From the IMG/VR virus record IMGVR_UViG_2687453449_000002: DNA of 15,276 nt; one strand, 5' to 3'. This document shows, in pieces, positions 1 to 15,276 of the stretch. Position numbers and translations under genes: made by a program. The stretch's first letter is position 1. Every line of letters starts with the position of its first letter. The stretch comes from a virus. Lineage: Duplodnaviria; Heunggongvirae; Uroviricota; Caudoviricetes. The notes under the pieces were generated by a model. That model worked only from the letters and a program-made list of their open reading frames with translations. It ran no database searches and had not been told where the DNA came from.

Positions 1-822
1 TCAGCAGATATCCCGCCAGCACCAGCAACGCTTCGTAGAAGCCATTAAACACCAGTAGGCCAGTTCGTCATCCAGTGTTTTCCATGTCTGCTTGTATTCG
101 CGATGAATGGCAGCAATGACCGGGCTGATTTTTCCTGTTGAATTTTCAGTGTACTGTTGATTGGCTCTGGCGCGGGCGAGATCAACAACAGACGTGTATT
201 TTCCGGTTTCCTTGCGTTCACCTTCGCGACGTTTTTTCCAGATGCGCATCTCTGCCTGAATTTCGGGCCATTTAGCACCAGGAATACATTTATGCTTAAC
301 CCACCCAATGGCGTGCAACTTAAGCTCCGGATACATGGCGTTAACTTCTGGCATTTTCATCAACGCTTCAACGATATGTCCGTCGAATGTTGCCATGTCT
401 TCCTGCAACAATTCCTGTGCGCTAATAACCATATCAACGGTGATGTTTTCACATGTGTCGAACTTAACCATGACAGCGTTCTGTACTTCAGGGGCCAGCT
501 TGTCAAAAGTGACGTTCATCGGATCGGATTCAGTCTCAACCGGGACAAAAGAAGCAGACTCCTCATCCCAGCGGTTTTCCTGCATATATTCAGCATCCCA
601 TGAATCGAGGGCAGGGCGGGGTATGCCAGGTTTATCCTCGCAGACAATAAATTTATAAGCGCAGTCCTGAGCAGCCGGATAATGTTCCAGGAACTGCCAG
701 TGAAATTTTGCTCGAGCACGGCGTTCGTCGCCAGCTTCAATGGCTGTGGCTACAGCCACAGCGCCTTCTTCCCTTGTTGCCAGTTCGTCAGGAATAGCGG
801 CGCAAATAAAGACTTTACTCAT
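1..822 (-). CDS. Prophage protein of unknown function, last gene of the dicB operon in this window (ydfE position)
   Basis: Complete 273-aa ORF (stop at 1-3, ATG at 820-822) with GAGG about 10 nt upstream; follows ydfD on the same strand. Assigned by position only, not by sequence recognition. Confidence 0.65.
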   Translation of the reverse strand: MSKVFICAAIPDELATREEGAVAVATAIEAGDERRARAKFHWQFLEHYPAAQDCAYKFIVCEDKPGIPRPALDSWDAEYMQENRWDEESASFVPVETESDPMNVTFDKLAPEVQNAVMVKFDTCENITVDMVISAQELLQEDMATFDGHIVEALMKMPEVNAMYPELKLHAIGWVKHKCIPGAKWPEIQAEMRIWKKRREGERKETGKYTSVVDLARARANQQYTENSTGKISPVIAAIHREYKQTWKTLDDELAYWCLMASTKRCWCWRDIC

Positions 823-915
823 TTTGTTTTAACCTCATGACAGATTTAAGGATGAACAAATCCCTGCCATTGCTGGCATATAAGAATGAAACCGGATATT
901 TATTACGGAACTGTT

Positions 916-1107
916 TTAAAGACCTGCCGGGATTTCGATATTATCCTGGTGAATAACTTTATCGACCGGGTAACAGTTACCGGGAATTTTCTGTTCGGTT
1001 GCTGCAGTCATACACTCCTGCATTGTCCTGTGAACACTGTCTGCAATATCAACTGGCTCTCCGGAAACAAGAAAAACTGTCAGAACAAGCGCAAATGCTG
1101 AATTCAT
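916..1107 (-). CDS. ydfD: Small membrane/lysis protein YdfD-like (63 aa)
   Basis: Internal start MNSAFALVLTVFLVSGEP... within the 81-aa track ORF gives a 63-aa protein with a hydrophobic N-terminus; its ATG overlaps the dicB stop in an ATGA arrangement (1104-1107), indicating translational coupling. Confidence 0.6.
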   Translation of the reverse strand: MNSAFALVLTVFLVSGEPVDIADSVHRTMQECMTAATEQKIPGNCYPVDKVIHQDNIEIPAGL

Positions 1108-1292
1108 TGTGTACATCCTTTTGGCATCAGACGTAAACGAGCCAGCATTGAAACAATGCATATTTTATTTAATAGCTCCCGTTCTTGTTTTCTCTTGTTA
1201 ATGGCATCTTCAGTAAATACAGGGTTACTGATAGTGACACCAATTTCAAAACAACCTTCAGACGTATTAACGTTTGGTAATAACGTTTTCAT
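1104..1292 (-). CDS. dicB: Cell division inhibitor DicB (62 aa)
   Basis: Internal start of the 97-aa track ORF gives MKTLLPNVNTSEGCFEIGVTISNPVFTEDAINKRKQERELLNKICIVSMLARLRLMPKGCTQ, recognised as DicB; GAGGA Shine-Dalgarno 7 nt upstream; lies downstream of DicF as in Qin. Confidence 0.9.
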   Translation of the reverse strand: MKTLLPNVNTSEGCFEIGVTISNPVFTEDAINKRKQERELLNKICIVSMLARLRLMPKGCTQ

Positions 1293-1461
1293 TATCGCGT
1301 CCTCAACAATGAATTTTGTGATGCAGTGCCTGGTGCCTCCAGGTGACGTTAACCAGTTAACAATTAACGCCGGATACAGAGAATCCACCCATAACACTGT
1401 TTTTGGTTTTAACTGTTCCGCGTGCGCTTAGCCGCATTCACCGCATCACAAAATTCACTTT

Positions 1462-1519
1462 AAAAACGGCGGCAGAGCAGTCACGGAGTAAAACTGATAC
1501 CGCCAAACGTCACCAGAAA
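1462..1519 (-). ncRNA. dicF: DicF small regulatory RNA (ftsZ-targeting), with its intrinsic terminator
   Basis: Minus-strand sequence tttctggtgacgtttggcggtatcagttttactccgtgactgctctgccgccgttttt matches the remembered DicF sRNA, including a GC-rich 3' hairpin plus T-run; located between the upstream ORFs and dicB. Confidence 0.85.
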
Positions 1520-1794
1520 ATTGATAACAGAGGGCGTTGCAGCGGGGTTGTCACTTAAGCGTATGGTCAACCTGACAACTCGGTGTCCTCAACGGGGAAG
1601 GAATAACCCCGCCATACTTACCGCCGCGCCATTTCGCGGGTTGCCACAACCGGAAGCGCACGGTCGAATTAAATTTAACGACACCGTACAGTGAGACGAA
1701 CTTCGCCGTGCGCTTTCGTGTTGTGTGCCTGCTTTTAACCACGTCAGGCGAGGTGGTATCCTTCTTATCCCGAATAACCAAGAAGGAAATCTAT

Positions 1795-1995
1795 ATGACT
1801 AAAGAAGAATTTGTCTCTTATATTTTTGATAAAACGGTTGAAATGTATGCCGCTACTTACGGGTCCTGTAATCCTCTGAATAAACCAGAGGGGAAAGATG
1901 ATTTCGACAAAATTTACCGCTTCTTGGAGGACCGCTATATCAAAAGGTTAGAGGACGCAGGGATCAAATCCCCAGTGAAGTCACCATTGTCCTGA
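1795..1995 (+). CDS. Hypothetical 66-aa protein encoded antisense to the dicB operon (uncertain)
   Basis: ATG at 1795 preceded by AGAAGGAAAT Shine-Dalgarno (5-nt spacer); AT-rich codon usage; its 3' end overlaps the convergent 125-aa ORF by about 32 bp. Confidence 0.3.
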   Translation: MTKEEFVSYIFDKTVEMYAATYGSCNPLNKPEGKDDFDKIYRFLEDRYIKRLEDAGIKSPVKSPLS

Positions 1996-2341
1996 GAACT
2001 TGCAGGACGTCATGATCGTAACTTCCATCCAAACCGCGACGGCAAATTGCTTCTCGTATTACCGGAAGCAGTTCGCTGGAAATCTCGGTGCATATTTCAC
2101 CTGATAATACGCCTGGCTCAAGTGAGAATATTGGTGAACTTACGGTCTTGGTCTCGACAGTTTCAGAGTCAGTGCCAACATTATAAAGCTCAACGAAAGC
2201 GGTCTTGATTTTCCGGGCCAGATCTTTTGCTGGCTCGCTTGCAATATCTTTCCCGATTTCTCGCAGCACAGAATGCAATGTATGAGCTGCTGTTTTCTGT
2301 ACATCAGACGGTAAATCTTTAAATTCCATCGTCAGCCTCAT
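1964..2341 (-). CDS. Hypothetical 125-aa protein of the dicB operon (ydfB/ydfC position)
   Basis: ORF MRLTMEFKDLPSDVQ... whose ATG overlaps the ydfA stop (ATGA at 2339-2343); co-directional with dicA, ydfA and dicB. Confidence 0.6.
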   Translation of the reverse strand: MRLTMEFKDLPSDVQKTAAHTLHSVLREIGKDIASEPAKDLARKIKTAFVELYNVGTDSETVETKTVSSPIFSLEPGVLSGEICTEISSELLPVIREAICRRGLDGSYDHDVLQVLRTMVTSLGI

Positions 2342-2493
2342 CAGTCAGTGTTTCTGGCTAACCAGCAACGCGCGCCAGATTCGGTTTTAAACGTTTTGCT
2401 TTTGGTATATGTCATCGCGGTGAACGTACCGTCCTGGTTGGGGAACACGCCACATACCAGAGATTCGCTGTTGCCAAGATCGATAGTATCCAT
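2341..2493 (-). CDS. ydfA: Small protein YdfA-like (50 aa)
   Basis: Internal start MDTIDLGNSESLVCGVFPNQDGTFTAMTYTKSKTFKTESGARCWLARNTD with GAGG 6 nt upstream; first gene after dicA on the same strand, as in Qin. Confidence 0.7.
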   Translation of the reverse strand: MDTIDLGNSESLVCGVFPNQDGTFTAMTYTKSKTFKTESGARCWLARNTD

Positions 2494-2605
2494 GCTGACC
2501 TCATTTCCCCTTAACGCCGGGGTAGCGGAACTGTTTGCTGAGAACACCGTGCGGTGTCTTGATGGAAAGTAATTTAGAATAACCTAACATGAGAGGCAAG
2601 TGTTT

Positions 2606-2627
2606 TTTGTTAGATTGATCTAACAAA
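2606..2627. promoter_or_regulatory. Operator-like palindrome in the dicB-operon promoter region (putative DicA site)
   Basis: Perfect inverted repeat tttgttagat-tg-atctaacaaa sharing the core GTTAGA-N4-TCTAAC with two sites in the dicA/dicC intergenic region; lies between the dicA stop and the ydfA start. Confidence 0.6.
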
Positions 2628-2661
2628 AAGGGTGGGCGCAACTAATCACTTGAAAAGAATG

Positions 2662-3069
2662 TTATTTTATTGATTTATTTTTACGCGCTTTAAGCATTTC
2701 TTCGAAGAGTTTGTTGAAGTTTTCTACTCTTGCGCGCATTTCAGACAGCAAGGCTTCCTGCTCGGAAGATGGAAGAGCATCGAATAATTCGATCAATTCT
2801 TTGTGGTTGGGAGTTAGCTCTGTTTCCACATGAAGTTCTTGTGCAGGCACTGGTGCCTTGTCTTCGTCACCAAACATTAGCCATGTAGGTGAGCACTTCA
2901 GAGCATCCGCTAAAGCAAACAATCGTTTTCCGACTGGCTGGGTTTCGTCTCTTTCCCATTGTGAAATTGTGACGTGAGCAACTCCAGCGAGGCGCGCAGC
3001 TTCTCGTTGTGTTAAGCGTAATTCTTTTCGTCGCGCCAGAACTCGCTGGCCTAGGGTTCTTGTATCCAT
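2662..3069 (-). CDS. dicA: HTH-XRE repressor DicA (cI-like), 135 aa
   Basis: N-terminal HTH (LRLTQREAARLAGVAHVTISQWERDETQP), the C-terminal segment MRARVENFNKLFEEMLKAR remembered from DicA, correct length, and divergent from a cro-like dicC. Confidence 0.85.
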   Translation of the reverse strand: MDTRTLGQRVLARRKELRLTQREAARLAGVAHVTISQWERDETQPVGKRLFALADALKCSPTWLMFGDEDKAPVPAQELHVETELTPNHKELIELFDALPSSEQEALLSEMRARVENFNKLFEEMLKARKNKSIK

Positions 3070-3149
3070 AGTTAGGTAATTCTAATTTTTCTTGACTTAG
3101 GTATCCCGCGCACAATAATGTTAGAAAAGTCTAACAAGAGGGGGCTTTG
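3070..3149. promoter_or_regulatory. dicA/dicC divergent promoter-operator region
   Basis: Two palindromes GTTAGG-taat-TCTAAT (3071-3086) and GTTAGA-aaag-TCTAAC (3120-3135); rightward promoter candidate TTGACT (3092-3097), 16-17 bp spacer, AATAAT/ATAATG (3114-3120), the second palindrome overlapping the -10/+1; GAGGGGG Shine-Dalgarno before dicC. Confidence 0.65.
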
Positions 3150-3377
3150 ATGCTTAAAGTTGACGCAATTACTTTTTTTGGCAGCAAAACAAAGCTTGCC
3201 AATGCCGCAGGAGTGAGACTGGCAAGTGTTGCTGCTTGGGGGATACTGGTTCCTGAAGGTCGCGCGATGCGTCTACAGGAGGCATCTGGCGGGGAGCTTC
3301 AGTATGATCCCAAAGTTTATGACGAATATCGTAAGACGAAGCGGGCGGGGCGGTTGAACAATGAAAATCACTCCTGA
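3150..3377 (+). CDS. dicC: Cro-like regulator DicC (75 aa from the ATG; the track ORF begins 3 nt earlier at TTG)
   Basis: MLKVDAITFFGSKTKLANAAGVRLASVAAWG...RLQEASGGELQYDPKVYDEYRKTKRAGRLNNENHS, recognised as DicC-like; divergent from dicA; Shine-Dalgarno 6 nt upstream of the ATG at 3150. Confidence 0.8.
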   Translation: MLKVDAITFFGSKTKLANAAGVRLASVAAWGILVPEGRAMRLQEASGGELQYDPKVYDEYRKTKRAGRLNNENHS

Positions 3378-3882
3378 ACAGGCTCGTGAGGCTCTGGATG
3401 CCTGGATATGTCGACCAGGAATGACACAGGAGCAGGCGACGATATTAATCACTGAAGCATTCTGGGCTTTGAAAGAGCGCCCGAACATCGATGTTCAGCG
3501 TGTCACATATGAAGGTGGCGCGGTTGATCAGCGAGCGCTTAGCGTTAATCGAGTGAAGATATTCGAACGCTGGAAGGCTATCGACACCAGGGATAAGCGT
3601 GAAAAGTTCACAGCGCTAGTGCCTGCAATTATGGAGGCTATCCGGATTAGTGATTTCAGGTTGTATCGTGAGATCAGTGATGGAAAAAGTATTACGTACA
3701 TGATCGCCGGGTTAAATAAAGAATATGGCGATGTGGTGGAATCCGGACTGCTTTTTGCAGATCCTGCCGTTGTAGATCGTGAAACTGACGAACTTATAGA
3801 AAAAGCAATTGCTTTCAAGCTTGCGTATCGACAGCAATACCAACAAAAAGCTGGATGGAATTATGAGTCTTCTTTTTGCTGA
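3361..3882 (+). CDS. cII-position early protein, possibly YdaT-family (173 aa)
   Basis: ORF immediately after the cro-like gene, with its start overlapping the dicC 3' end; family assignment is by position and weak recollection only. Confidence 0.5.
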   Translation: MKITPEQAREALDAWICRPGMTQEQATILITEAFWALKERPNIDVQRVTYEGGAVDQRALSVNRVKIFERWKAIDTRDKREKFTALVPAIMEAIRISDFRLYREISDGKSITYMIAGLNKEYGDVVESGLLFADPAVVDRETDELIEKAIAFKLAYRQQYQQKAGWNYESSFC

Positions 3883-4828
3883 ACGCCCACTGGTTATAAA
3901 CACGCAGCTGGCAATGAAAATCGGCTTAAACGAAGCCATTGTTTTGCAACAACTGCACTACTGGTTGAGAGATACCAACTCCGGTATGGAATGTGATGGT
4001 GTTCGCTGGATTTATAACACAACGGAACAATGGCTGGAACAGTTCCCATTCTGGTCAGAGTCAACGTTAAAGCGCGCGTTTGCAAGTCTGAAAACGCTGG
4101 GGCTTTTGCGTTGTGAAAAGCTCAATAAATCAAAGCGCGATATGACCAATTTCTACACGATCAACTATGGGAGCGAGCTTTTAGATGGTGGCAAATTGAA
4201 CGAATCCATCGGTTCAAAATGCGCCGCTCCATCAGGTCAAAATGACACGATGGAAGAGGTCAAAATGAAACGCTCCATTGGTTCAAAACGATCCAATGTC
4301 ATCGGGTCAAAATGGCCTGATGATCTTACAGAGAATACAACAGAGATTACTACAGAGAATAAAAACACTTTTCGTCCGGAAGCTTCGCAACCGGACCCGC
4401 AGACGACTGAACAGGATTTTTTAACCCGGAACTCCGACGCGGTTGTGTTTAGTGCGAAAAAACGCCAGTGGGGTAGCAGGGAGGATTTGGCGTGTGCGCA
4501 GTGGATCTGGGGGCGGATCGTGGGTCTCTACGAACAGGCAGCCAGTGATGATGGCGAGATCATGCGACCAAAAGAGCCTAACTGGACTGCCTGGGCCAAT
4601 GACGTGCGCACAATGCGGATGCTGGATGGCAGAAGCCACAGACAAATTTGCGAAATGTTTGGTCGGGTTCAGCGAGATCCATTCTGGGTAAAAAACATCA
4701 TGAGCCCGTCAAAGCTCCGCGAAAAATGGGACGAACTGGTCATCCGCCTGGGACGTTCACCTGTACAGCGTTGTGTTAATCATATTTCTGAACCGGATAC
4801 AGAAATTCCGCCTGGTTTCAGAGGATAA
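3863..4828 (+). CDS. Phage replication initiation protein (lambda O / YdaU-like replisome organiser), 321 aa
   Basis: N-terminal domain resembling replisome-organiser HTH (LNEAIVLQQLHYWLRDT...STLKRAFASLKTLGLLR), a central linker encoded by iteron DNA, and a distinct C-terminal domain; start chosen at ATG 3863 (MSLLFAERP), overlapping the upstream stop by 20 nt. Confidence 0.7.
   Translation: MSLLFAERPLVINTQLAMKIGLNEAIVLQQLHYWLRDTNSGMECDGVRWIYNTTEQWLEQFPFWSESTLKRAFASLKTLGLLRCEKLNKSKRDMTNFYTINYGSELLDGGKLNESIGSKCAAPSGQNDTMEEVKMKRSIGSKRSNVIGSKWPDDLTENTTEITTENKNTFRPEASQPDPQTTEQDFLTRNSDAVVFSAKKRQWGSREDLACAQWIWGRIVGLYEQAASDDGEIMRPKEPNWTAWANDVRTMRMLDGRSHRQICEMFGRVQRDPFWVKNIMSPSKLREKWDELVIRLGRSPVQRCVNHISEPDTEIPPGFRG
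4204..4314 (+). repeat. Five direct iterons (putative prophage replication origin) inside the replication initiator gene
   Basis: Core GGT(T)CAAAA(T/C)G ending at 4221, 4244, 4267, 4290 and 4314 (23-24 bp periodicity), several with a TCCATC prefix; followed by an A-rich ACAGAGA-repeat stretch (4315-4365); encodes IGSK peptide repeats. Confidence 0.65.
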
Positions 4829-4868
4829 GTGTTGATTTCAGGTCATGAGGTAATTTTAAGGGGGAGTT

Positions 4869-5291
4869 GTGGCAAAAGTTTTTACACAAGAAGAGCGGGA
4901 AAAAATTAAAGGGCAGGTGGTGGAACTCGTGCGCCAGAGCGGTCGTGAGACGTTACGGCAACTGGAAGCTAAAACAGGTGCGACTAGATATCTGATGAGC
5001 GTTCTTGCCAGAGAGCTGGTAGCCAGTGGCGATGTATACAACTCCGGCTACGGGTTATTCCCGTCTGAACAGGCGCGTAAGGACTGGCAAAACGCCCGCA
5101 AAAAACTCTCGAGGGCAAAGGTGAAGAAACCTGCTGTGGTTGATCCGGACCTTATCTGGTCATTACCTGATGGAGAAATACGCCGCTACGACAGTCGTCT
5201 AAACATAATCTGTCGCGAGTGCCGGAAGAGCGAAGTTATGCAGCGTGTTCTGACGTTTTATCAGGGGAATTATCGGGAGGTGATGCTGTGA
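4869..5291 (+). CDS. Hypothetical 140-aa protein, possible winged-helix DNA-binding protein
   Basis: GTG start at 4869 preceded by AAGGGGGAG Shine-Dalgarno; coherent ORF MAKVFTQEEREKIKGQVVELVRQSGRETLRQLEAKTGATRYLMSVLARELV...; no family recognised. Confidence 0.55.
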   Translation: MAKVFTQEEREKIKGQVVELVRQSGRETLRQLEAKTGATRYLMSVLARELVASGDVYNSGYGLFPSEQARKDWQNARKKLSRAKVKKPAVVDPDLIWSLPDGEIRRYDSRLNIICRECRKSEVMQRVLTFYQGNYREVML

Positions 5292-6353: not shown

Positions 6354-6687
6354 ATCTTGTTGAAATTAGAGGAAATCTTGCAGCCATGATATGGCTTAAA
6401 ATAACGTTTGATTATTTTACCTGCTGTTTGTCCCTGGTTTAAAGTCGGTTGTCTGATTTGATTACGCGCAACTGACGCTTACGTATTGAAGTAACGAGCA
6501 CGAAGACACATATTTATCAGTGCCTGTATACGTCAAGAGCAGGAGATTTATGTGCTGGTTCTCAAATGCACGCTGGCTATTGTGGCTGTAATGGCAATTT
6601 ATTGTCTTGTTATTGTTCTTATGGATCACCTTTCTGATTGATTTCATATTGGAGAGGTAACGGTAGTTAAGTAGAATGGCTGCGGGT

Positions 6688-6852
6688 GCTTGAGGCTATC
6701 TGCCTCGGGCATGAACACCAACGGCAGATAGAGAAAAGCCCCAGTTAACATTACGCGTCCTGCAAGACGCTTAACATTAATCTGAGGCCAATTTCATGCT
6801 AGACACATGTAGGTTAGCCTCTTACGTGCCGAAAGGCAAGGAGAAGCAGGCT
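6688..6852 (+). promoter_or_regulatory. hok mRNA 5' leader with tac/ucb-like elements and an in-frame mok-like upstream start (6796)
   Basis: Sequence ggtgcttgaggctatctgcctc...ggcagatagagaaaagcccc...agcctcttac...gcaaggagaag resembles the conserved structured leader of hok-family mRNAs. Confidence 0.5.
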
Positions 6853-7008
6853 ATGAAGCAGCAAAAGGCGATGTTAATCGCCCTGATCGTCATCTGTTTA
6901 ACCGTCATAGTGACGGCACTGGTAACGAGGAAAGACCTCTGCGAGGTACGAATCCGAACCGGCCAGACGGAGGTCGCTGTCTTCACAGCTTACGAACCTG
7001 AGGAGTAA
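6853..7008 (+). CDS. hokD: Hok-family type I toxin (51 aa), HokD/RelF-like
   Basis: MKQQKAMLIALIVICLTVIVTALVTRKDLCEVRIRTGQTEVAVFTAYEPEE: single transmembrane helix and conserved Hok C-terminus; AAGGAGAAG Shine-Dalgarno upstream. Confidence 0.9.
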   Translation: MKQQKAMLIALIVICLTVIVTALVTRKDLCEVRIRTGQTEVAVFTAYEPEE

Positions 7009-7224: not shown

Positions 7225-7476
7225 ATGATGAACATCGAAGAACTGCGTAAAAATTTTTGTGAAGATGGCCTCTATGCTGTGTGCGTTGAAAATGGAAATC
7301 TTGTTAGTCATTACCGCATTATGTGTTTGCGAAAGAATGGGGCTGCGTTAATTAATTTTGTGGATGGTCGAGTGACAGACGGATTTATCTTGCGCGAAGG
7401 TGAGTTTGTCACTTCATTACAGGCACTGAAAGAGATCGGAATAAAAGCAGGCTTTTCAGCTTTTGCAGAAGAATAA
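7225..7476 (+). CDS. rem: Rem-like small prophage protein (83 aa)
   Basis: MMNIEELRKNFCEDGLYAVCVENGNLVSHYRIMCLRKNGAALINFVDG...; GGAAGGA Shine-Dalgarno; lies directly downstream of hok as rem does relative to hokD in Qin. Confidence 0.7.
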   Translation: MMNIEELRKNFCEDGLYAVCVENGNLVSHYRIMCLRKNGAALINFVDGRVTDGFILREGEFVTSLQALKEIGIKAGFSAFAEE

Positions 7477-7542
7477 ACTCATCTACAATCTTGCGCGGGG
7501 CTGAACTCCCGCTGAGTAACACCGTGCCACCGGAGAAAACCG

Positions 7543-7821
7543 ATGGCACGCAACGTAAAATATTACAATTCTGATAATTCGCCCGTTCTTGTCTGCACGC
7601 ACGAGCGGTATTCTCACGCATTCAAGTCTGAATGGTTCCAACACCCTCCATGCACTGAAGAGCAGGCTGAATGGATAATTCAGTGTTACCGCAGGCGCGG
7701 ATACGAGGTTAAGAAAGCCCTTAGTCTCGACTACCGTCACTGGATAATCTCAGTCAGATTGCCTTACTCCGAACGCCCACCGCGTCCGTCCCGTACATTC
7801 CAGCAACGCATCTGGAGGTAA
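7543..7821 (+). CDS. Hypothetical 92-aa protein; the C-terminal third may be out-of-context sequence at a deletion junction
   Basis: ATG preceded by GGAG; N-terminal 70 aa look protein-like (MARNVKYYNSDNSPVLVCTHERYSHAFKSEWFQHPPCTEEQAEWIIQCYRRRGYEV...), the tail is Pro/Arg-rich; same frame as the downstream lom fragment, separated from it by one stop. Confidence 0.4.
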   Translation: MARNVKYYNSDNSPVLVCTHERYSHAFKSEWFQHPPCTEEQAEWIIQCYRRRGYEVKKALSLDYRHWIISVRLPYSERPPRPSRTFQQRIWR

Positions 7822-8097
7822 CGTGCGGGTATTACTTCGACCTGTTCTGGTATGGCTTACAGCCGTGTGTCGACCTTCTCCGGGGATTATCTCCGCGTAA
7901 CTGACAACAAGGGGAAAACGCACGATGTGCTGACCGGAAGTGATGACGGTCGCCACAGCAACACGTCTCTGGCGTGGGGGGCTGGCGTGCAGTTTAACCC
8001 GACCGAATCCGTGGCCATTGACCTTGCTTATGAAGGTTCCGGCAGTGGTGACTGGCGCACTGACGGTTTCATCGTGGGTGTCGGTTATAAATTCTGA
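7822..8097 (+). pseudogene. lom: lom (Ail/Lom outer-membrane protein) 3' fragment lacking the N-terminal half
   Basis: Encodes ...SLAWGAGVQFNPTESVAIDLAYEGSGSGDWRTDGFIVGVGYKF, matching the C-terminal beta-strands of Lom/Ail/PagC; no signal peptide or N-terminal barrel portion upstream. Confidence 0.7.
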
Positions 8098-8123
8098 TTA
8101 GCCAGGTAACACAGTGTTATGAC

Positions 8124-8150
8124 AGCCCGCCGGTTCAGGCGGGCTTTTTT
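8124..8150 (+). terminator. Rho-independent terminator between the lom remnant and stf
   Basis: Stem agcccgcc / ggcgggct with a 6-nt loop, followed by tttttt. Confidence 0.8.
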
Positions 8151-8161
8151 GTGGAGTGGAT

Positions 8162-10540
8162 ATGGCAGCAGTAAAAATCTCAGGTGTGCTGAAAGATGGT
8201 GCGGGAAAACCAATACAGAACTGCACTATTCAACTGAAGGCAAAGCGTAACAGCACCACGGTACTGGTGAACACGGTAGCCTCTGAAAATCCGGATGAAG
8301 CCGGGCGTTACAGCATGGATGTCGAGTATGGCCAGTACAGCGTCACCCTGCTGGTTGAAGGTTTTCCGCCTTCACATGCCGGAACCATTACCGTCTATGA
8401 AGGTTCCAGACCTGGTACGCTGAATGATTTTCTCGGTGCCATGACGGAAGATGATGTCATGCCGGAGGCATTGCGTCGTTTTGAGGCAATGGTGGAAGAA
8501 GCAGCACGCAACGCTGAAGCCGCCTCTCAGAGCGCAGCGGCAGCAAAGAAATCAGAAACAGCAGCGGCATCATCGAAGAACGCGGCGAAAACCTCAGAAA
8601 CGCATGCAGCTAACAGCGCACAGGCGGCAGCGGCCTCGCAGACTGCATCGGCAAACTCCGCGACAGCAGCTAAAAAATCAGAAAACAACGCGAAAAATAG
8701 CGAGACAGCAGCAAAGACGAGCGAAACCAACGCAAAGTCCAGCCAGGCGGCAGCGAAAACAAGCGAAACGAATGCCAAAACCAGTGAAACTGCGGCGAAA
8801 AGCAGTCAGGCTGCAGCAGCCGAAAGCGAGAGTGCGGCAGCCGGTTCTGCGACTTCAGCAGCTGGATCAGCAACTGCTGCAGCTAACAGCCAGAAAGCAG
8901 CGAAGACGAGCGAAACTAACGCAAAGTCCAGCCAGACGGCAGCGAAGACCAGCGAAACGAATGCCAAAGCCAGCGAAACTGCGGCGAAAAACAGTCAGGA
9001 TGCAGCGGCCCAAAGCGAGAGTGCCGCAGCTGGTTCTGCAAGTGCGGCGGCTTCTTCTGCCACTGCATCAGCCAACAGTCAAAAAGCTGCAAAAACCAGT
9101 GAAACCAACGCAAAGGCGAGCGAGACTGCGGCGGCTAACTCGGCGAAAGCATCCGCTGCAAGCCAGACGGCTGCAAAAGCAAGTGAAGACGCAGCCAGAG
9201 AGTATGCAAGCCAGGCTGCGGAGCCGTATAAACAAGTTTTGCAGCCGCTTCCCGATGTGTGGATACCGTTTAACGATTCACTGGATATGCTTGCTGGCTT
9301 TTCGCCTGGTTATAAGCAAATAACTGTAGGTGATGATGTTATTAAAATGCCATCCGATAAGGTTGTTAGCTTCAAACGCGCATCAGGTGCAACATACATT
9401 AATAAATCAGGAGTATTAACCGTTGCTGAAGTTGACGAACCGCGATTTGAACGAGAAGGTTTGCTGATTGAAGGACAAAGAACCAACTATCATCTTAATT
9501 CACTTACGCCATCTAAGTGGGGAGCTACAACAAGTGTAACTATAACAGAAAGTGGTGTTGATGAGTTTGGCTTTACTTATGGGCGGTTTCAAATAAAGGA
9601 CGAAAAAATTGGGACAAATACGACAATGAATATCGCTGCGGTTTCAGGAGGAAGAGGTGTCGATGTTACTGGAACTGAAAAGTATGTTACAACATCATGT
9701 CGTGTAAAAAGCGATAGTGCTAATATACAATGTCGTATAAGATTTGAAAGATATGACGGGTCCGCATATTTTTATCTGGCAGATGCATATCTTAATATAA
9801 CAGATATGTCCATTAGGAAAACGGGAGGAGGGGCTGCAAGAATAACCGCCCGAGCGGAGAAAGAATCTAATGGATGGATTTATTTCGAGGTTACATATCA
9901 ATCTGAAGCTATTGATAATATGGTTGGCTCTCAGATCCAAATTGCTCCACCTGTTTCACCTGGAACTTATTTGGGCGGGGAATATTTGGATGTTACGACA
10001 CCACAATTTGAAGGCGGCTCATGCGCATCATCTTTTATCATTTCCGATACAGTTGCATCAACGCGAGCAAGCGATATTGTTACATTGCCTTGTAAAAATA
10101 ACATGGCCAGCAAACCTTTAACCTGCATGGTTGAAGTGAATAAAAATTGGTCTATAGCACCAAATTCCGCGCCTAGAATTTATGATATAACAGGATTTAA
10201 AACAAAAGACGACGCTTTTGTTTTTGCATTCAGAAATACAGCAGGTAGTGTAGGAACTCCATATGTTCAATTTGGTAATCCAATATCATTTCCACCTGGA
10301 AATTACCCAAGAAAGATTATCGCTGTATATAGAATAAAAAGCGATGGCAAGTTTCAGGCTGGCTGCAATGGGGTTTTATCAACACCAGCATCAACAACGT
10401 GGAAGAGTGTTAGTGGTGCTACAGGTATAAGGATTGGAGGCCAGACTACAGCCGGCTTACGTCATTTATTTGGTTATATCAGGAATTTTAGAATATGGCA
10501 TAAAGAATTAACCGATGCGCAAATGGGAGAGATAATATAA
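8162..10540 (+). CDS. Side tail fibre protein (Stf), mosaic: lambda-Stf-like N-terminal domain, Ala/Ser/Thr repeat shaft, divergent AT-rich C-terminal receptor-binding region (792 aa from ATG 8162)
   Basis: N-terminus MAAVKISGVLKDGAGKPIQNCTIQLKAKRNSTTVLVNTVASENPDEAGRYSMDVEYGQYSV... matches the remembered lambda Stf N-terminus; GGAG Shine-Dalgarno before ATG 8162 (the track ORF starts at GTG 8156); C-terminal end ...FGYIRNFRIWHKELTDAQMGEII resembles a LamG/ConA-like lectin domain. Confidence 0.9.
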   Translation: MAAVKISGVLKDGAGKPIQNCTIQLKAKRNSTTVLVNTVASENPDEAGRYSMDVEYGQYSVTLLVEGFPPSHAGTITVYEGSRPGTLNDFLGAMTEDDVMPEALRRFEAMVEEAARNAEAASQSAAAAKKSETAAASSKNAAKTSETHAANSAQAAAASQTASANSATAAKKSENNAKNSETAAKTSETNAKSSQAAAKTSETNAKTSETAAKSSQAAAAESESAAAGSATSAAGSATAAANSQKAAKTSETNAKSSQTAAKTSETNAKASETAAKNSQDAAAQSESAAAGSASAAASSATASANSQKAAKTSETNAKASETAAANSAKASAASQTAAKASEDAAREYASQAAEPYKQVLQPLPDVWIPFNDSLDMLAGFSPGYKQITVGDDVIKMPSDKVVSFKRASGATYINKSGVLTVAEVDEPRFEREGLLIEGQRTNYHLNSLTPSKWGATTSVTITESGVDEFGFTYGRFQIKDEKIGTNTTMNIAAVSGGRGVDVTGTEKYVTTSCRVKSDSANIQCRIRFERYDGSAYFYLADAYLNITDMSIRKTGGGAARITARAEKESNGWIYFEVTYQSEAIDNMVGSQIQIAPPVSPGTYLGGEYLDVTTPQFEGGSCASSFIISDTVASTRASDIVTLPCKNNMASKPLTCMVEVNKNWSIAPNSAPRIYDITGFKTKDDAFVFAFRNTAGSVGTPYVQFGNPISFPPGNYPRKIIAVYRIKSDGKFQAGCNGVLSTPASTTWKSVSGATGIRIGGQTTAGLRHLFGYIRNFRIWHKELTDAQMGEII
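8700..9200 (+). repeat. About 2.5 imperfect tandem copies of a ~189-bp (63-codon) unit within the stf shaft region
   Basis: Repeat starts near 8707, 8897 and 9083; encodes AAKTSETNAKSSQ...AAAGSA...ANSQK units; also creates spurious long ORFs in other frames. Confidence 0.8.
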
Positions 10541-12066: not shown

Positions 12067-12657
12067 TTATATGTCAGGTGTCTGAAGTTTTGCTTTGGCT
12101 CTTAAAATGGTTTGCCGCGAGGTTTTGAATTCCCGGGCAATGGCACTTATACTTACACCTGACTTAATCCGTTCGAATACCACCTGTTTCTGTTCTTCAT
12201 TTAACACAGGTGGTCGACCAAAACGTTTCCCTGCGCCCCGGGCTCTTACTATCCCGGAATGAGTGCGTTCAAGTAAAAGGTCTCGTTCAAATTCAGCGAC
12301 TGCTGAAATTACTTGCATCATCATTTTTCCTGTTGGACTGGTCAGGTCAATGCCCCCCAATGCTAAGCAATGCACTCTGATACCTGTTTCGGTCAGTTGT
12401 TCCACTGTTTTCCTGATATCCATTGCATTACAACCAAGGCGATCCAATTTTGTCACAATCAATTGATCACCACATTTCAGGCGAGCAAGCAACCGGTTAA
12501 AACCAGGACGCTCACTGGTTGCTGCTGAGCCGCTAATGTGTTCTTCGATTATTTGCTGAGGTTTGATTTTAAAACCTGCACTTTCGATTTCCCGGCGTTG
12601 ATTTTCGGTGGTCTGATCCAGCGTTGATATCCGACAGTAAGCAAAAATTCGAGACAT
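12067..12657 (-). CDS. pinQ: Serine recombinase, Pin-family DNA invertase (196 aa)
   Basis: [20 protein letters not shown]... with the catalytic Ser in YCRISTLDQ, a resolvase/invertase catalytic core and a C-terminal HTH ([17 protein letters not shown]); convergent with stf/tfa, as in Qin and Rac. Confidence 0.9.
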
Positions 12658-12704
12658 AGTGAGACTCTATACGAAATTGGTGTTCATATCATAATGCATC
12701 TCAG

Positions 12705-12724
12705 AAAATAATTTTGATTATTTT
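12705..12724. promoter_or_regulatory. AT-rich inverted repeat in the pin upstream region (function unknown)
   Basis: aaaataat-tttg-attatttt, perfect 8-bp arms, about 50 bp upstream of the pin start codon. Confidence 0.3.
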
Positions 12725-12973
12725 TGTGCATATTTGTATGTACACGTTCGAAAATAAACGAATGCGTATGCAACCCCGTAATTTTGGTGAGACCCAAAAT
12801 CGATTTTGTGAAAAATGGCTTTAACTCGGTTTGTTTTTCGAGTTCCAGGCGGACTCAAGGAAGAAGAATAGTGTTGCGTGTTATTTTAACCAGATTTCAA
12901 GTTGTTTGGTCGTGGAAAAGTGGAGCAAAATGTTGTTAAAGTGGAAAAATGATAAAAAAGTAAGTTAATTATA

Positions 12974-13207
12974 TTACATTTTACCATTTAAATTTTGGTT
13001 GTCTTTAAGAACTGATATCGCTGTTTGTAATAATTCTTTGTTATCCAGCCATGATTTTTTCTTTATGTTTCCTTCAATGTAATCAAGCAATGTTCTGGTA
13101 TTGATAGGTCTTCCCTGTTTTGCTACTTCCACTACAGCATCCCCTAGGATAATTCTTACTTCAGGAAGCTGCGCAGGGAACCACTTTAGGGTGTCTTTTG
13201 ATTTCAT
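12974..13207 (-). CDS. ydfK: YdfK/YnaE-type small prophage protein (77 aa)
   Basis: Internal start MKSKDTLKWFPAQLPEVRIILGDAVVEVAKQGRPINTRTLLDYIEGNIKKKSWLDNKELLQTAISVLKDNQNLNGKM with AAGGAA Shine-Dalgarno; adjacent to pin and ydfJ as in Qin. Confidence 0.8.
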   Translation of the reverse strand: MKSKDTLKWFPAQLPEVRIILGDAVVEVAKQGRPINTRTLLDYIEGNIKKKSWLDNKELLQTAISVLKDNQNLNGKM

Positions 13208-13992
13208 GAAGATATTCCTTAAAATATTATTGATTTTCATTGCGATATTGTATGTCTGATTCAGAATATGTTGACTTATACATCGGTTTTGTCTGGGTTA
13301 TTGGATATGCCAATCCCTAATTTTATTAGGGCATGACTAAAAATGCTGAATATGATAAGGAGAGAAGTGATTATCAGTATGCTGTTCATATAGCCTCGAA
13401 TTATTAATGTGTTATATATGATATAGTTGACGATTTTTATCTTGGGTGTTCTTAAAGTTCGTAGATAAACATTGTCGTTTCAGGTATACAGGAATGCTAA
13501 CAGGTGGCAGCAAAAATCAGGCGGTTTATGGCGCAAGCTGAAGCGGCAACTGCAAACTATCTTATGCAGAGACTCTACACGGATTGGGTTTAAAAGTATA
13601 CATAGATAACAGTTTTTATCTGAAGAAGAAAAATATCAAGGTGATATAGCCTATATGCCTTTGATGCGGAGGAATGAATGTGATGGGAGTGATGTATCTG
13701 AATAGTTGAAAAACCGCAGACACGCCTTATGCAAGAACGTGCTGCGGTTGGCTGGTAAATTTTTCGATAGTGTGTGTATTGAATGATTTCCAGCCGTTCT
13801 TGATTTTACGCATAAATCCATGAAAAAACCACTTATCTGTTGGGGAGTTTTTTTGGGGCATATATGGGACAGAAATAGGCCCCAGATAGACACTGAGATC
13901 GAACTCAGGATGCTTTTTAAAAAATGCAACTATCTGAAAAAACCTAGAAAACGCCAAGGGAACCACAGGATGGGAAAAAACACCTGTGAATT

Positions 13993-15276
13993 ATGGATTT
14001 CCAGTTATATTCGCTCGGCGCAGCGTTAGTGTTTCATGAAATATTTTTTCCTGAATCATCAACGGCAATGGCGTTAATTTTGGCAATGGGAACCTACGGT
14101 GCAGGTTATGTGGCGCGTATTGTCGGAGCATTTATTTTCGGCAAAATGGGCGACAGAATAGGGCGTAAAAAAGTGCTCTTTATTACCATCACCATGATGG
14201 GGATCTGTACCACCTTAATTGGTGTGTTACCGACCTATGCACAGATTGGTGTTTTTGCCCCCATCTTGCTGGTGACGCTGCGTATTATTCAGGGGTTGGG
14301 TGCAGGTGCGGAAATTTCCGGTGCCGGTACGATGCTGGCGGAATATGCACCAAAAGGTAAGCGCGGAATTATCTCCTCATTTGTAGCTATGGGAACTAAC
14401 TGCGGAACCTTGAGCGCAACGGCAATCTGGGCCTTTATGTTCTTCATTCTCAGTAAAGAGGAACTGCTGGCGTGGGGATGGCGTATACCGTTCCTGGCGA
14501 GCGTTGTCGTGATGGTCTTTGCTATCTGGTTACGTATGAATCTGAAAGAAAGCCCGGTCTTTGAGAAGGTTAATGACAGCAACCAACCCACAGCAAAACC
14601 TGCACCTGCTGGTAGCATGTTCCAGAGCAAATCCTTCTGGCTGGCAACAGGGCTGCGTTTTGGTCAGGCGGGTAACTCCGGGTTAATTCAGACTTTCCTT
14701 GCAGGCTATTTAGTGCAGACGTTATTGTTTAACAAAGCAATTCCAACAGATGCATTGATGATTAGTTCGATTCTCGGCTTTATGACCATTCCGTTCCTTG
14801 GTTGGTTATCCGATAAAATTGGTCGCCGGATCCCGTATATTATTATGAATACCTCCGCGATTGTGCTGGCATGGCCAATGCTTTCTATCATTGTAGATAA
14901 AAGCTATGCCCCGAGCACCATTATGGTTGCACTGATTGTGATTCATAACTGTGCGGTGCTGGGATTATTTGCTCTGGAAAACATTACCATGGCAGAAATG
15001 TTCGGCTGTAAAAACCGCTTTACCCGGATGGCTATTTCTAAAGAAATTGGTGGTCTTATCGCTTCCGGTTTTGGTCCTATCCTGGCGGGTATTTTCTGCA
15101 CCATGACGGAATCCTGGTATCCGATCGCCATTATGATCATGGCATATTCAGTGATTGGTTTAATCTCTGCGCTGAAAATGCCAGAGGTGAAAGACCGTGA
15201 TTTAAGTGCGCTGGAAGACGCTGCGGAAGATCAACCGCGTGTTGTAAGAGCTGCGCAACCTTCCAGAAGTCTGTAA
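13993..15276 (+). CDS. ydfJ: MFS-superfamily metabolite:H+ symporter-family transporter YdfJ, 5'-truncated by prophage integration (427-aa ORF)
   Basis: ORF begins MDFQLYSLGAALVFHEIFFPESS, which aligns with the conserved WFDF-GVYG-FFP region that lies about 25 residues into ProP-type transporters; GxxxDRxGRK motif present; an in-frame stop sits immediately upstream of the ATG. Confidence 0.85.
   Translation: MDFQLYSLGAALVFHEIFFPESSTAMALILAMGTYGAGYVARIVGAFIFGKMGDRIGRKKVLFITITMMGICTTLIGVLPTYAQIGVFAPILLVTLRIIQGLGAGAEISGAGTMLAEYAPKGKRGIISSFVAMGTNCGTLSATAIWAFMFFILSKEELLAWGWRIPFLASVVVMVFAIWLRMNLKESPVFEKVNDSNQPTAKPAPAGSMFQSKSFWLATGLRFGQAGNSGLIQTFLAGYLVQTLLFNKAIPTDALMISSILGFMTIPFLGWLSDKIGRRIPYIIMNTSAIVLAWPMLSIIVDKSYAPSTIMVALIVIHNCAVLGLFALENITMAEMFGCKNRFTRMAISKEIGGLIASGFGPILAGIFCTMTESWYPIAIMIMAYSVIGLISALKMPEVKDRDLSALEDAAEDQPRVVRAAQPSRSL

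Follow-up and report, generated by a model that had tools for sequence, protein, structure and literature searches.

In Escherichia coli K-12, the Qin prophage is integrated at the 5′ end of ydfJ, a gene for an MHS-family MFS transporter, and the insertion has cost the gene its promoter and its first 28 codons (PMC6379469). The attR of Qin thus lies in a ydfJ pseudogene, cited as b4600 in one phage record. The same gene is occupied by the PPydfJ prophages of enterohemorrhagic E. coli (EHEC; O157, O26) and by Stx2a phages, and attP of ydfJ prophages has been established by PCR (PMC8112680). The Rac prophage has a related right end (pinR-ynaE-ynaM-attR), which is located in ttcA. Here, we describe the corresponding region of a 15,276-nt stretch of DNA (IMG/VR record IMGVR_UViG_2687453449_000002; hereafter, the window), in which an initial annotation, made from the letters alone, had proposed a prophage–host junction inside ydfJ and an AT-rich, non-coding prophage terminus at 13241–13995. 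This junction is almost certainly attR, the right end of a defective lambdoid prophage of the Qin type that sits in ydfJ. As such, it is not new; the locus is well studied, and both the attachment site in ydfJ and the 28-codon truncation have been published.

Over window positions 13000–15276, identity is 100% with E. coli BLR(DE3) (NZ_CP020368.1) and 98.9% with K-12-type genomes, which carry Qin. In BLR(DE3), the prophage lies in ydfJ, between rspB and ydfI, which is the location of Qin. The gene order there is rspB, a ydfJ 5′ fragment or short gap, int (frameshifted), xisR, an exonuclease VIII fragment, ydfD, dicB, hokD, rem, a Q-family antiterminator gene, IS3, tail-fibre fragments, pinQ, ydfK, ynfT, the truncated ydfJ (ydfJ′), and ydfI. 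As judged from Rfam and annotation, the hallmark genes of Qin are all present (dicF, dicB, hokD/sok, rem, pinQ, ydfK, and ynfT). Qin of K-12 and the window share the insertion point, the core of the attachment site, and the right-end order pinQ-ydfK-ynfT, with 98.8–98.9% identity over 12601–15276. Yet, the copy of the B lineage differs from K-12 Qin in being only ~16.4 kb long and heavily deleted, with an IS3 in mid-prophage, a Rac-like xis, and a frameshifted int. In the phage-derived arm next to the core (P arm), there are a few single-nucleotide polymorphisms and indels, including a G for an A at 13906 and a T run that is 1 nt shorter. Given the annotated frameshift in int and the deletion of the prophage to 16.4 kb, excision is unlikely. 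No tRNA or tmRNA gene is present; thus, the attachment site is not of the tRNA type.

A common core in four attachment sites

Four kinds of attachment site were compared, namely, attP of the phages HannyBb (PP925841) and mEp460_ev081 (LR597641), attB of strain 89-3156, attL of BLR(DE3), and attR of the window. Strain 89-3156 lacks a prophage here and retains the intact order rspA-rspB-ydfJ-ydfI, with a ydfJ product of 455 residues. In the alignment to an uninterrupted gene that the initial annotation had advised, its ydfJ matches the window only from 13987 rightward. Placed side by side, the attachment sites share an exact 11-bp common core, TTATGGATTTC, identical in attP of both phages, attB, attL, and attR. 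To the left of the core, the flank is phage DNA in attP and attR and host DNA in attB and attL; to its right, the flank is phage DNA in attP and attL and host DNA in attB and attR. Hence, attR consists of the phage P arm and host B′, and attL consists of host B and phage P′. The last phage-specific base is 13990, in agreement with the earlier placement of the junction within a few bases of 13985–13995. Because the flanks are swapped as in site-specific recombination, strand exchange must, to judge from the aligned sequences, have occurred inside the core.

The matching attL, for which a search had also been advised, is present in BLR(DE3): at the other prophage end, a second copy of the core stands next to the lost 5′ part of ydfJ, which adjoins rspB on one side and phage DNA and int on the other. 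Indeed, both the excisionase gene xisR and the tyrosine integrase gene int, the latter frameshifted, lie at this end beside rspB. In the free phages HannyBb and mEp460_ev081, window positions 13390–14001 (612 bp) are found in mid-genome at 97.7–98.5% identity, and the genes run in the order tail fibre, invertase, ydfK, ynfT, the 612-bp segment with the core, the P′ arm, int, xis, and exo. The same 612 bp therefore adjoins int in free phages, and the AT-rich stretch does hold the prophage end, as had been supposed. The integrase of HannyBb contains an arm-binding domain (PF12167, Arm-DNA-bind_2) and the catalytic domain (PF00589, Phage_integrase).

Nothing was found that contradicts the attR assignment itself. 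The phage almost certainly inserted through site-specific recombination by the tyrosine integrase at ydfJ codons 28–31. The DNA to the left of the core is of phage origin, comprising the ydfK/ynfT cold-shock module, a probable terminator hairpin that bounds this module on the int side, and a P arm of ~240 bp, and the DNA to its right is host ydfJ from Met29 onward. The features of the region are listed in Table 1.

Table 1. Features at the right end of the prophage, in window coordinates.
Feature	Position	Strand	Basis
ydfK, cold-shock-induced 77-aa protein, last sizeable prophage gene	12974–13207	−	RefSeq WP_000836768.1
ynfT, small hydrophobic protein of 37 aa (YnaM/YnfT family), encoded upstream of ydfK	13276–13389	−	RefSeq annotation
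5′ untranslated leader of ynfT-ydfK, 176 nt before ynfT	13390–13565	−	Start at 13565 transferred by homology from K-12
ynfT-ydfK promoter region; best −10-like hexamer TAGAGT at 13572–13577 (putative)	13566–13615	−	Position relative to the mapped start
Intrinsic-terminator-like hairpin, stem 13712–13749, then T tract	13707–13749	−	Folding
P arm, phage-derived half of attR, ~240 bp	13750–13990	none	Joined to core, P′ arm, and int in the phages HannyBb and mEp460
Candidate integrase arm-type sites TTTGGGGCA (13852–13860) and TATGGGACA (13863–13871), 11 bp apart	13852–13871	+	Conservation
Second, upstream transcription start, inside the P arm	13894	−	K-12 data; transcript would reach the hairpin after ~185 nt
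In-frame TGA closing the ydfJ frame upstream	13987–13989	+	Same TGA in attP of HannyBb and mEp460, which indicates phage origin
Core of the attachment sites, TTATGGATTTC	13991–14001	none	Four-way alignment of attachment sites
Truncated ydfJ (pseudogene), codons 29–455, 427 aa, MHS-family MFS transporter	13993–15276	+	RefSeq "incomplete; missing N-terminus"

Truncation of ydfJ and alternative readings of the junction

The host reading frame runs across the core as GAA TTT ATG GAT TTC CAG, so that the ATG at 13993 is codon Met29 of ydfJ and lies inside the core. In comparison to the intact 455-aa YdfJ, 28 codons have been lost, and the phage-borne TGA stands in frame two codons before this ATG. 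The stop directly upstream of the open reading frame (ORF) and the removal of the 5′ end by integration had both been recognized in the initial annotation, in which a start equivalent to about residue 25 of related transporters was also a fair approximation of the actual residue 29. The insertion has also deprived ydfJ of its ribosome-binding site and of its connection to rspAB, and there is no Shine-Dalgarno sequence before 13993. The truncated YdfJ matches the metabolite/H+ symporter profile TIGR00883 from position 7, with 453.5 bits against a cut-off of 443.45, whereas the intact protein matches from position 1; against the ShiA and ProP models, the match of the truncated protein starts at positions 37 and 40, respectively. 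Its N-terminus is incomplete, as approximately the first half of transmembrane helix 1 has been removed, including the conserved LGTALEF of the MHS N-terminal motif. The insertion cut ydfJ-ydfI off from rspAB and from the ribosome-binding site, removed half of this helix, and brought a TGA of the phage into frame. In this strain, ydfJ is therefore a pseudogene, and its function has probably been lost.

The occurrence of the insertion was surveyed with a 211-bp probe spanning the intact attB against 5426 complete E. coli genomes. In 2009 of them, attB is uninterrupted; that is, ydfJ has the 28 additional codons. In the other genomes, as far as their matches were sampled, the alignment does not begin until probe position 96, at 5 bp from the core, which we take to mean that ~3360 genomes (~62%) have ydfJ split at the same point. 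A right end of the ydfK/ynfT type, as in the window, is present in 1987 genomes.

These data bear on two alternative origins of the break. If ydfJ were complete, 13993 would be its natural start and the AT-rich DNA upstream ordinary intergenic sequence; the ORF does begin with ATG, and its score exceeds the TIGR00883 cut-off. However, the intact allele and the attL fragment already refute this reading: the start of full-length ydfJ is located 84 nt farther upstream, the 28 extra codons are continuous with the gene in the 2009 genomes, and they are found at the other prophage end in the same lineage. The profile match from position 7 rather than 1, the missing Shine-Dalgarno sequence, and the RefSeq pseudogene call argue in the same direction. 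Nor is any sequencing error, whose correction might have extended the frame upstream, needed to explain the truncation. The break might instead stem from a non-specific event such as an IS-mediated deletion or illegitimate recombination, given that an IS3 is present and that the prophage has been so heavily deleted. This explanation is likewise already refuted, in this case by the four-way comparison, in which one 11-bp core recurs in attP, attB, attL, and attR with cleanly swapped flanks; moreover, the break point is the same in ~3360 genomes with different prophages, and the IS3 lies at least ~5.4 kb from the junction.

Two further alternatives concern what the region encodes. The proposal that the ~750 bp before ydfJ are AT-rich is borne out by a GC content of 37.9% for 13241–13995, in comparison to 45.6% for the window and 46.8% for ydfJ. 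The accompanying statement that they hold no convincing ORF must be restricted to 13390–13990, since ynfT occupies the preceding part. In 13390–13990, there are only ORFs of 21–92 aa, and this segment might still encode an unrecognized protein, for example one of 69–92 aa: ORFs exist at 13651–13929 (−), 13727–13966 (−), and 13820–14029 (+), and the automated annotation of HannyBb calls small ORFs here. Yet, none of these three longest ORFs has a Pfam match, and 1-nt length differences occur in T and A runs inside all three among close relatives; for these reasons, 13390–13990 is non-coding. In addition, the plus-strand ORF crosses the core and thus differs between attP and attR, and a dinI-like gene is inserted at 13833/13841 in O157 prophages, so that a further protein is very improbable. 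Somewhat less improbable, but still quite unlikely, is that a promoter in the phage DNA or within the gene drives the truncated ydfJ and that its product, starting at Met29, functions in transport, which would be compatible with the attR assignment. Its frame is intact over 427 codons and well conserved, and most of the MFS fold is kept. Against this stand the missing Shine-Dalgarno sequence, the failure to find a plus-strand promoter-like site upstream in the P arm, and the loss of about half of transmembrane helix 1 with LGTALEF.

At attL of BLR(DE3) (stretch L004, 19140–19330, outside the window), a hybrid ORF, MTIEKHERSTKDLVKAAVSGWLGTALEFMDF followed by KSH and a stop codon, joins YdfJ residues 1–31 to phage P′ codons. 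The counterpart in K-12 is YnfP (36 aa), a small protein confirmed by tagging (PMC6001520); therefore, the severed 5′ end of ydfJ is still translated in K-12. On the other side of the prophage, a very weak K-12 transcription start (2 reads) assigned to ydfI maps inside ydfJ, at window positions 14688–14738 (+), and ydfI could be expressed from it apart from the severed operon.

P arm, candidate arm sites, and terminator-like hairpin

The part of the P arm nearest the core, 13841–13990, recurs at 78–90% identity in further prophages that occupy ydfJ, among them Stx2a prophages and prophages with effector genes. The PPydfJ prophages of EHEC and the Stx2a phages use the same attB and core as the window, but they carry dinI-like, nleG, and nleC cargo in place of the ydfK/ynfT module, and their published attachment sites are 18–19 bp long, in comparison to the 11 bp of exact identity found here. 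The shared segment begins at 13714 in an EC_J_9-type prophage and at 13841 in O157 and Stx2a prophages. Positions 13833/13841 form a mosaic joint, at which a dinI-like gene is inserted exactly in the phages 2H10 and PhiR63_1 and in O157 prophages; this joint (13833–13841) parts a conserved 150-bp "core P arm" (13841–13990) from variable cargo. The left end of Stx2a_JNE122398 was also considered as an attL in ydfJ, but it was rejected and could not be used for the P′ comparison; it fits the published recombination between ompW and ydfJ prophages (PMC8112680).

Within the conserved segment, TGGGGCATATATGGGACA (13854–13871) is invariant in all eight aligned P arms, some of which are only ~78% identical. 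Two more copies of the same TGGGGCA-type motif (TATGGGGCA and GTTGGGGCA), also spaced by 11 bp, fall within the 3′ end of int, in the P′ arm; the repeated motif is thus present in both arms. Because the motif is invariant and repeated in P′, and because the related integrase has an arm DNA-binding domain, the TGGGGCATATATGGGACA block probably represents integrase arm-type sites, located ~120–140 bp from the core. The arrangement corresponds to that of lambda, whose record shows two Int-binding features on the P-arm side (−141 to −122 and −109 to −90 relative to the core) and a third one past the core, within the 3′ end of int. In both systems, the gene of a heterobivalent tyrosine integrase lies beside the P′ arm, with its 3′ end overlapping the P′ sites, and a U-tract hairpin stands on the int strand beyond the P-arm sites. 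There are also differences: the core measures 11 bp here and 15 bp in lambda, the arm motif of the window is TGGGGCA-like, and the target lies inside a coding gene, whereas that of lambda is intergenic.

The hairpin folds with −20.7 kcal/mol (z = −3.77), and none of 200 shuffled sequences folded as well. Copies with exactly the same pattern occur in Rac, HannyBb, and mEp460, and across six relatives 91.6% of the cells are paired. The EC_J_9 copy shows one compensatory change (C-G to A-U), and K-12 Qin shows two changes to G-U pairs where the window has standard pairs. In the free phage, this is the only strong U-tract hairpin found downstream of int, across attP, on the int strand; in HannyBb (stretch L008), it lies at 3320–3358 (−), downstream of int at 3650–4945 (−). 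Rac is 98.7% identical to the window over 12601–13751, from pin through the hairpin and including ydfK/ynaE, ynfT/ynaM, the promoter, and the leader. The similarity ends within ~15 nt of the 5′ edge of the hairpin (13751–13763); on the far side, the P arm of Rac is distinct, as is its attachment site in ttcA. The hairpin lies 242–279 bp from the core, in comparison to ~140–190 bp in lambda. On read-through, lambda forms an extended stem of the sib type (ACAGAG paired with UUUUGU, by the same method), whereas the window hairpin does not. These comparisons suggest that the hairpin may be a terminator that bounds the ydfK/ynfT module on the int side and that it would be tI-like rather than sib-like.

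Several observations weigh against parts of this interpretation. No IHF-type WATCAANNNNTTR with one mismatch or fewer was found in 13750–14001, a further difference from lambda, IHF sites being degenerate. Covariation in the hairpin is not significant, as only six sequences are available and 77–90 of 500 shuffles score as high. A simple terminator scan did not list the hairpin, the loop of which is beyond the limit of the scan; the same scan was also blank across lambda tI. Finally, the transcription starts at 13565 and 13894, considered below, are K-12 data transferred by homology and do not come from this strain.

No Rfam family matched 12900–14100 at the gathering threshold. CssrB (RF02799), a Shigella small RNA, was aligned to 13609–13746 (+) with 28.7 bits against a gathering threshold of 76 and was rejected; only its 3′ hairpin aligns well, and this corresponds to the hairpin of Table 1 on the opposite strand. 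A match to mir-263 at the E-value threshold was attributed to chance.

The ynfT-ydfK module and the meaning of the ydfJ junction

The left limit of the AT-rich stretch had been set at 13241 on the basis of an 88-aa ORF starting at 13240. This limit has to be corrected, as the true start of YdfK is the ATG at 13207, which is preceded by an AAGGA Shine-Dalgarno sequence. The computed monoisotopic mass of the resulting 77-aa form is 8772.80 Da, and top-down mass spectrometry of BL21 gave 8772.78 Da, which fits the 77-aa YdfK (PMC5594050). YnfT matches PF23676 (YnaM) over residues 1–37 of 37 with 96.2 bits (cut-off 27) and NF041477 of NCBIfam with 63.9 bits (cut-off 35), and GAGG is located 6 nt ahead of its ATG. 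The identical K-12 proteins, encoded by ynaM in Rac and by the copy between ydfJ and ydfK, have been proven to be made by chromosomal SPA tagging (PMC6001520).

For ydfK of K-12, Kim et al. 2012 reported transcription starts with untranslated regions (UTRs) of 325 and 654 nt, the 325-nt start being listed for ynaE as well. The 51-nt string upstream of the former start matches 13565–13615 exactly, and 325 nt is the distance from 13565 to 13240; the string upstream of the latter maps to 13894–13918 with one mismatch, and the 654-nt UTR agrees with a start at 13894. The AT-rich stretch thus holds the promoter and leader of ydfK, as had been anticipated. A start at 13565 would imply a joint ynfT-ydfK transcript. 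The promoter TTCAGA-18-TATACT predicted by a scan (13595–13624) is probably not used, as it lies 30 nt upstream of the mapped start, and the ydfK promoter hexamers from genomic SELEX (TTCCCA-16-GATAAT) were discarded because they map inside ydfJ (14368–14395). The leader shows no significant fold over 13380–13590 (−) (z = 0.31), nor does its sub-segment 13500–13590 (z = −0.66); a structured riboswitch or thermosensor is therefore unsupported.

Upstream of the start at 13894, the window has a G at 13906 (−) where K-12 has an A, in the second position of the best −10-like hexamer (TGAGTT versus TAAGTT). Owing to this substitution, the activity of the start in this strain is uncertain, and B-lineage strains may have a weaker P-arm promoter than K-12. 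For ydfK and ynaE, 5′ leader RNAs that terminate early and bind Hfq have been described in the literature. It is conceivable, though rather unlikely, that the P arm doubles as a small-RNA gene. An RNA of ~185 nt would start at 13894 (−), run across the arm sites, and end at the hairpin, with U residues as its tail. Such an RNA could correspond to the "5′ UTR-ydfK" species bound by Hfq, and in the free phage the hairpin would act as a tI-like terminator of the int operon. This reading is suggested by the K-12 transcription-start data and by the geometry of the region.

Elsewhere in the prophage, window positions 12601–12999 contain one mismatch to BLR(DE3), so that the source of the window is a close relative or a different B-lineage assembly rather than that very record. 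Rfam identified intact copies of the DicF small RNA at 1467–1518 (−) with 72.5 bits and of sok, the antitoxin RNA of hokD, at 6684–6858 (+) with 115.3 bits. The IS3 occupies ~7417–8579 (8280–9442 of the BLR(DE3) stretch L004), between the late-regulatory region and an N-terminally truncated tail/head-fibre gene. Lysis and morphogenesis genes are absent.

Knowledge of the exact core, of the limits of the P arm, and of the candidate arm sites helps to set prophage boundaries and to design PCRs for site occupancy; beyond correct annotation, the significance of the junction is small. The junction accounts for the pseudogene status of ydfJ and for the division of the rspAB-ydfJI sugar-acid cluster in B and K-12 strains. 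Moreover, few lambdoid integration sites in E. coli are used as heavily as ydfJ, and its occupants include prophages with Stx2a and effector genes.

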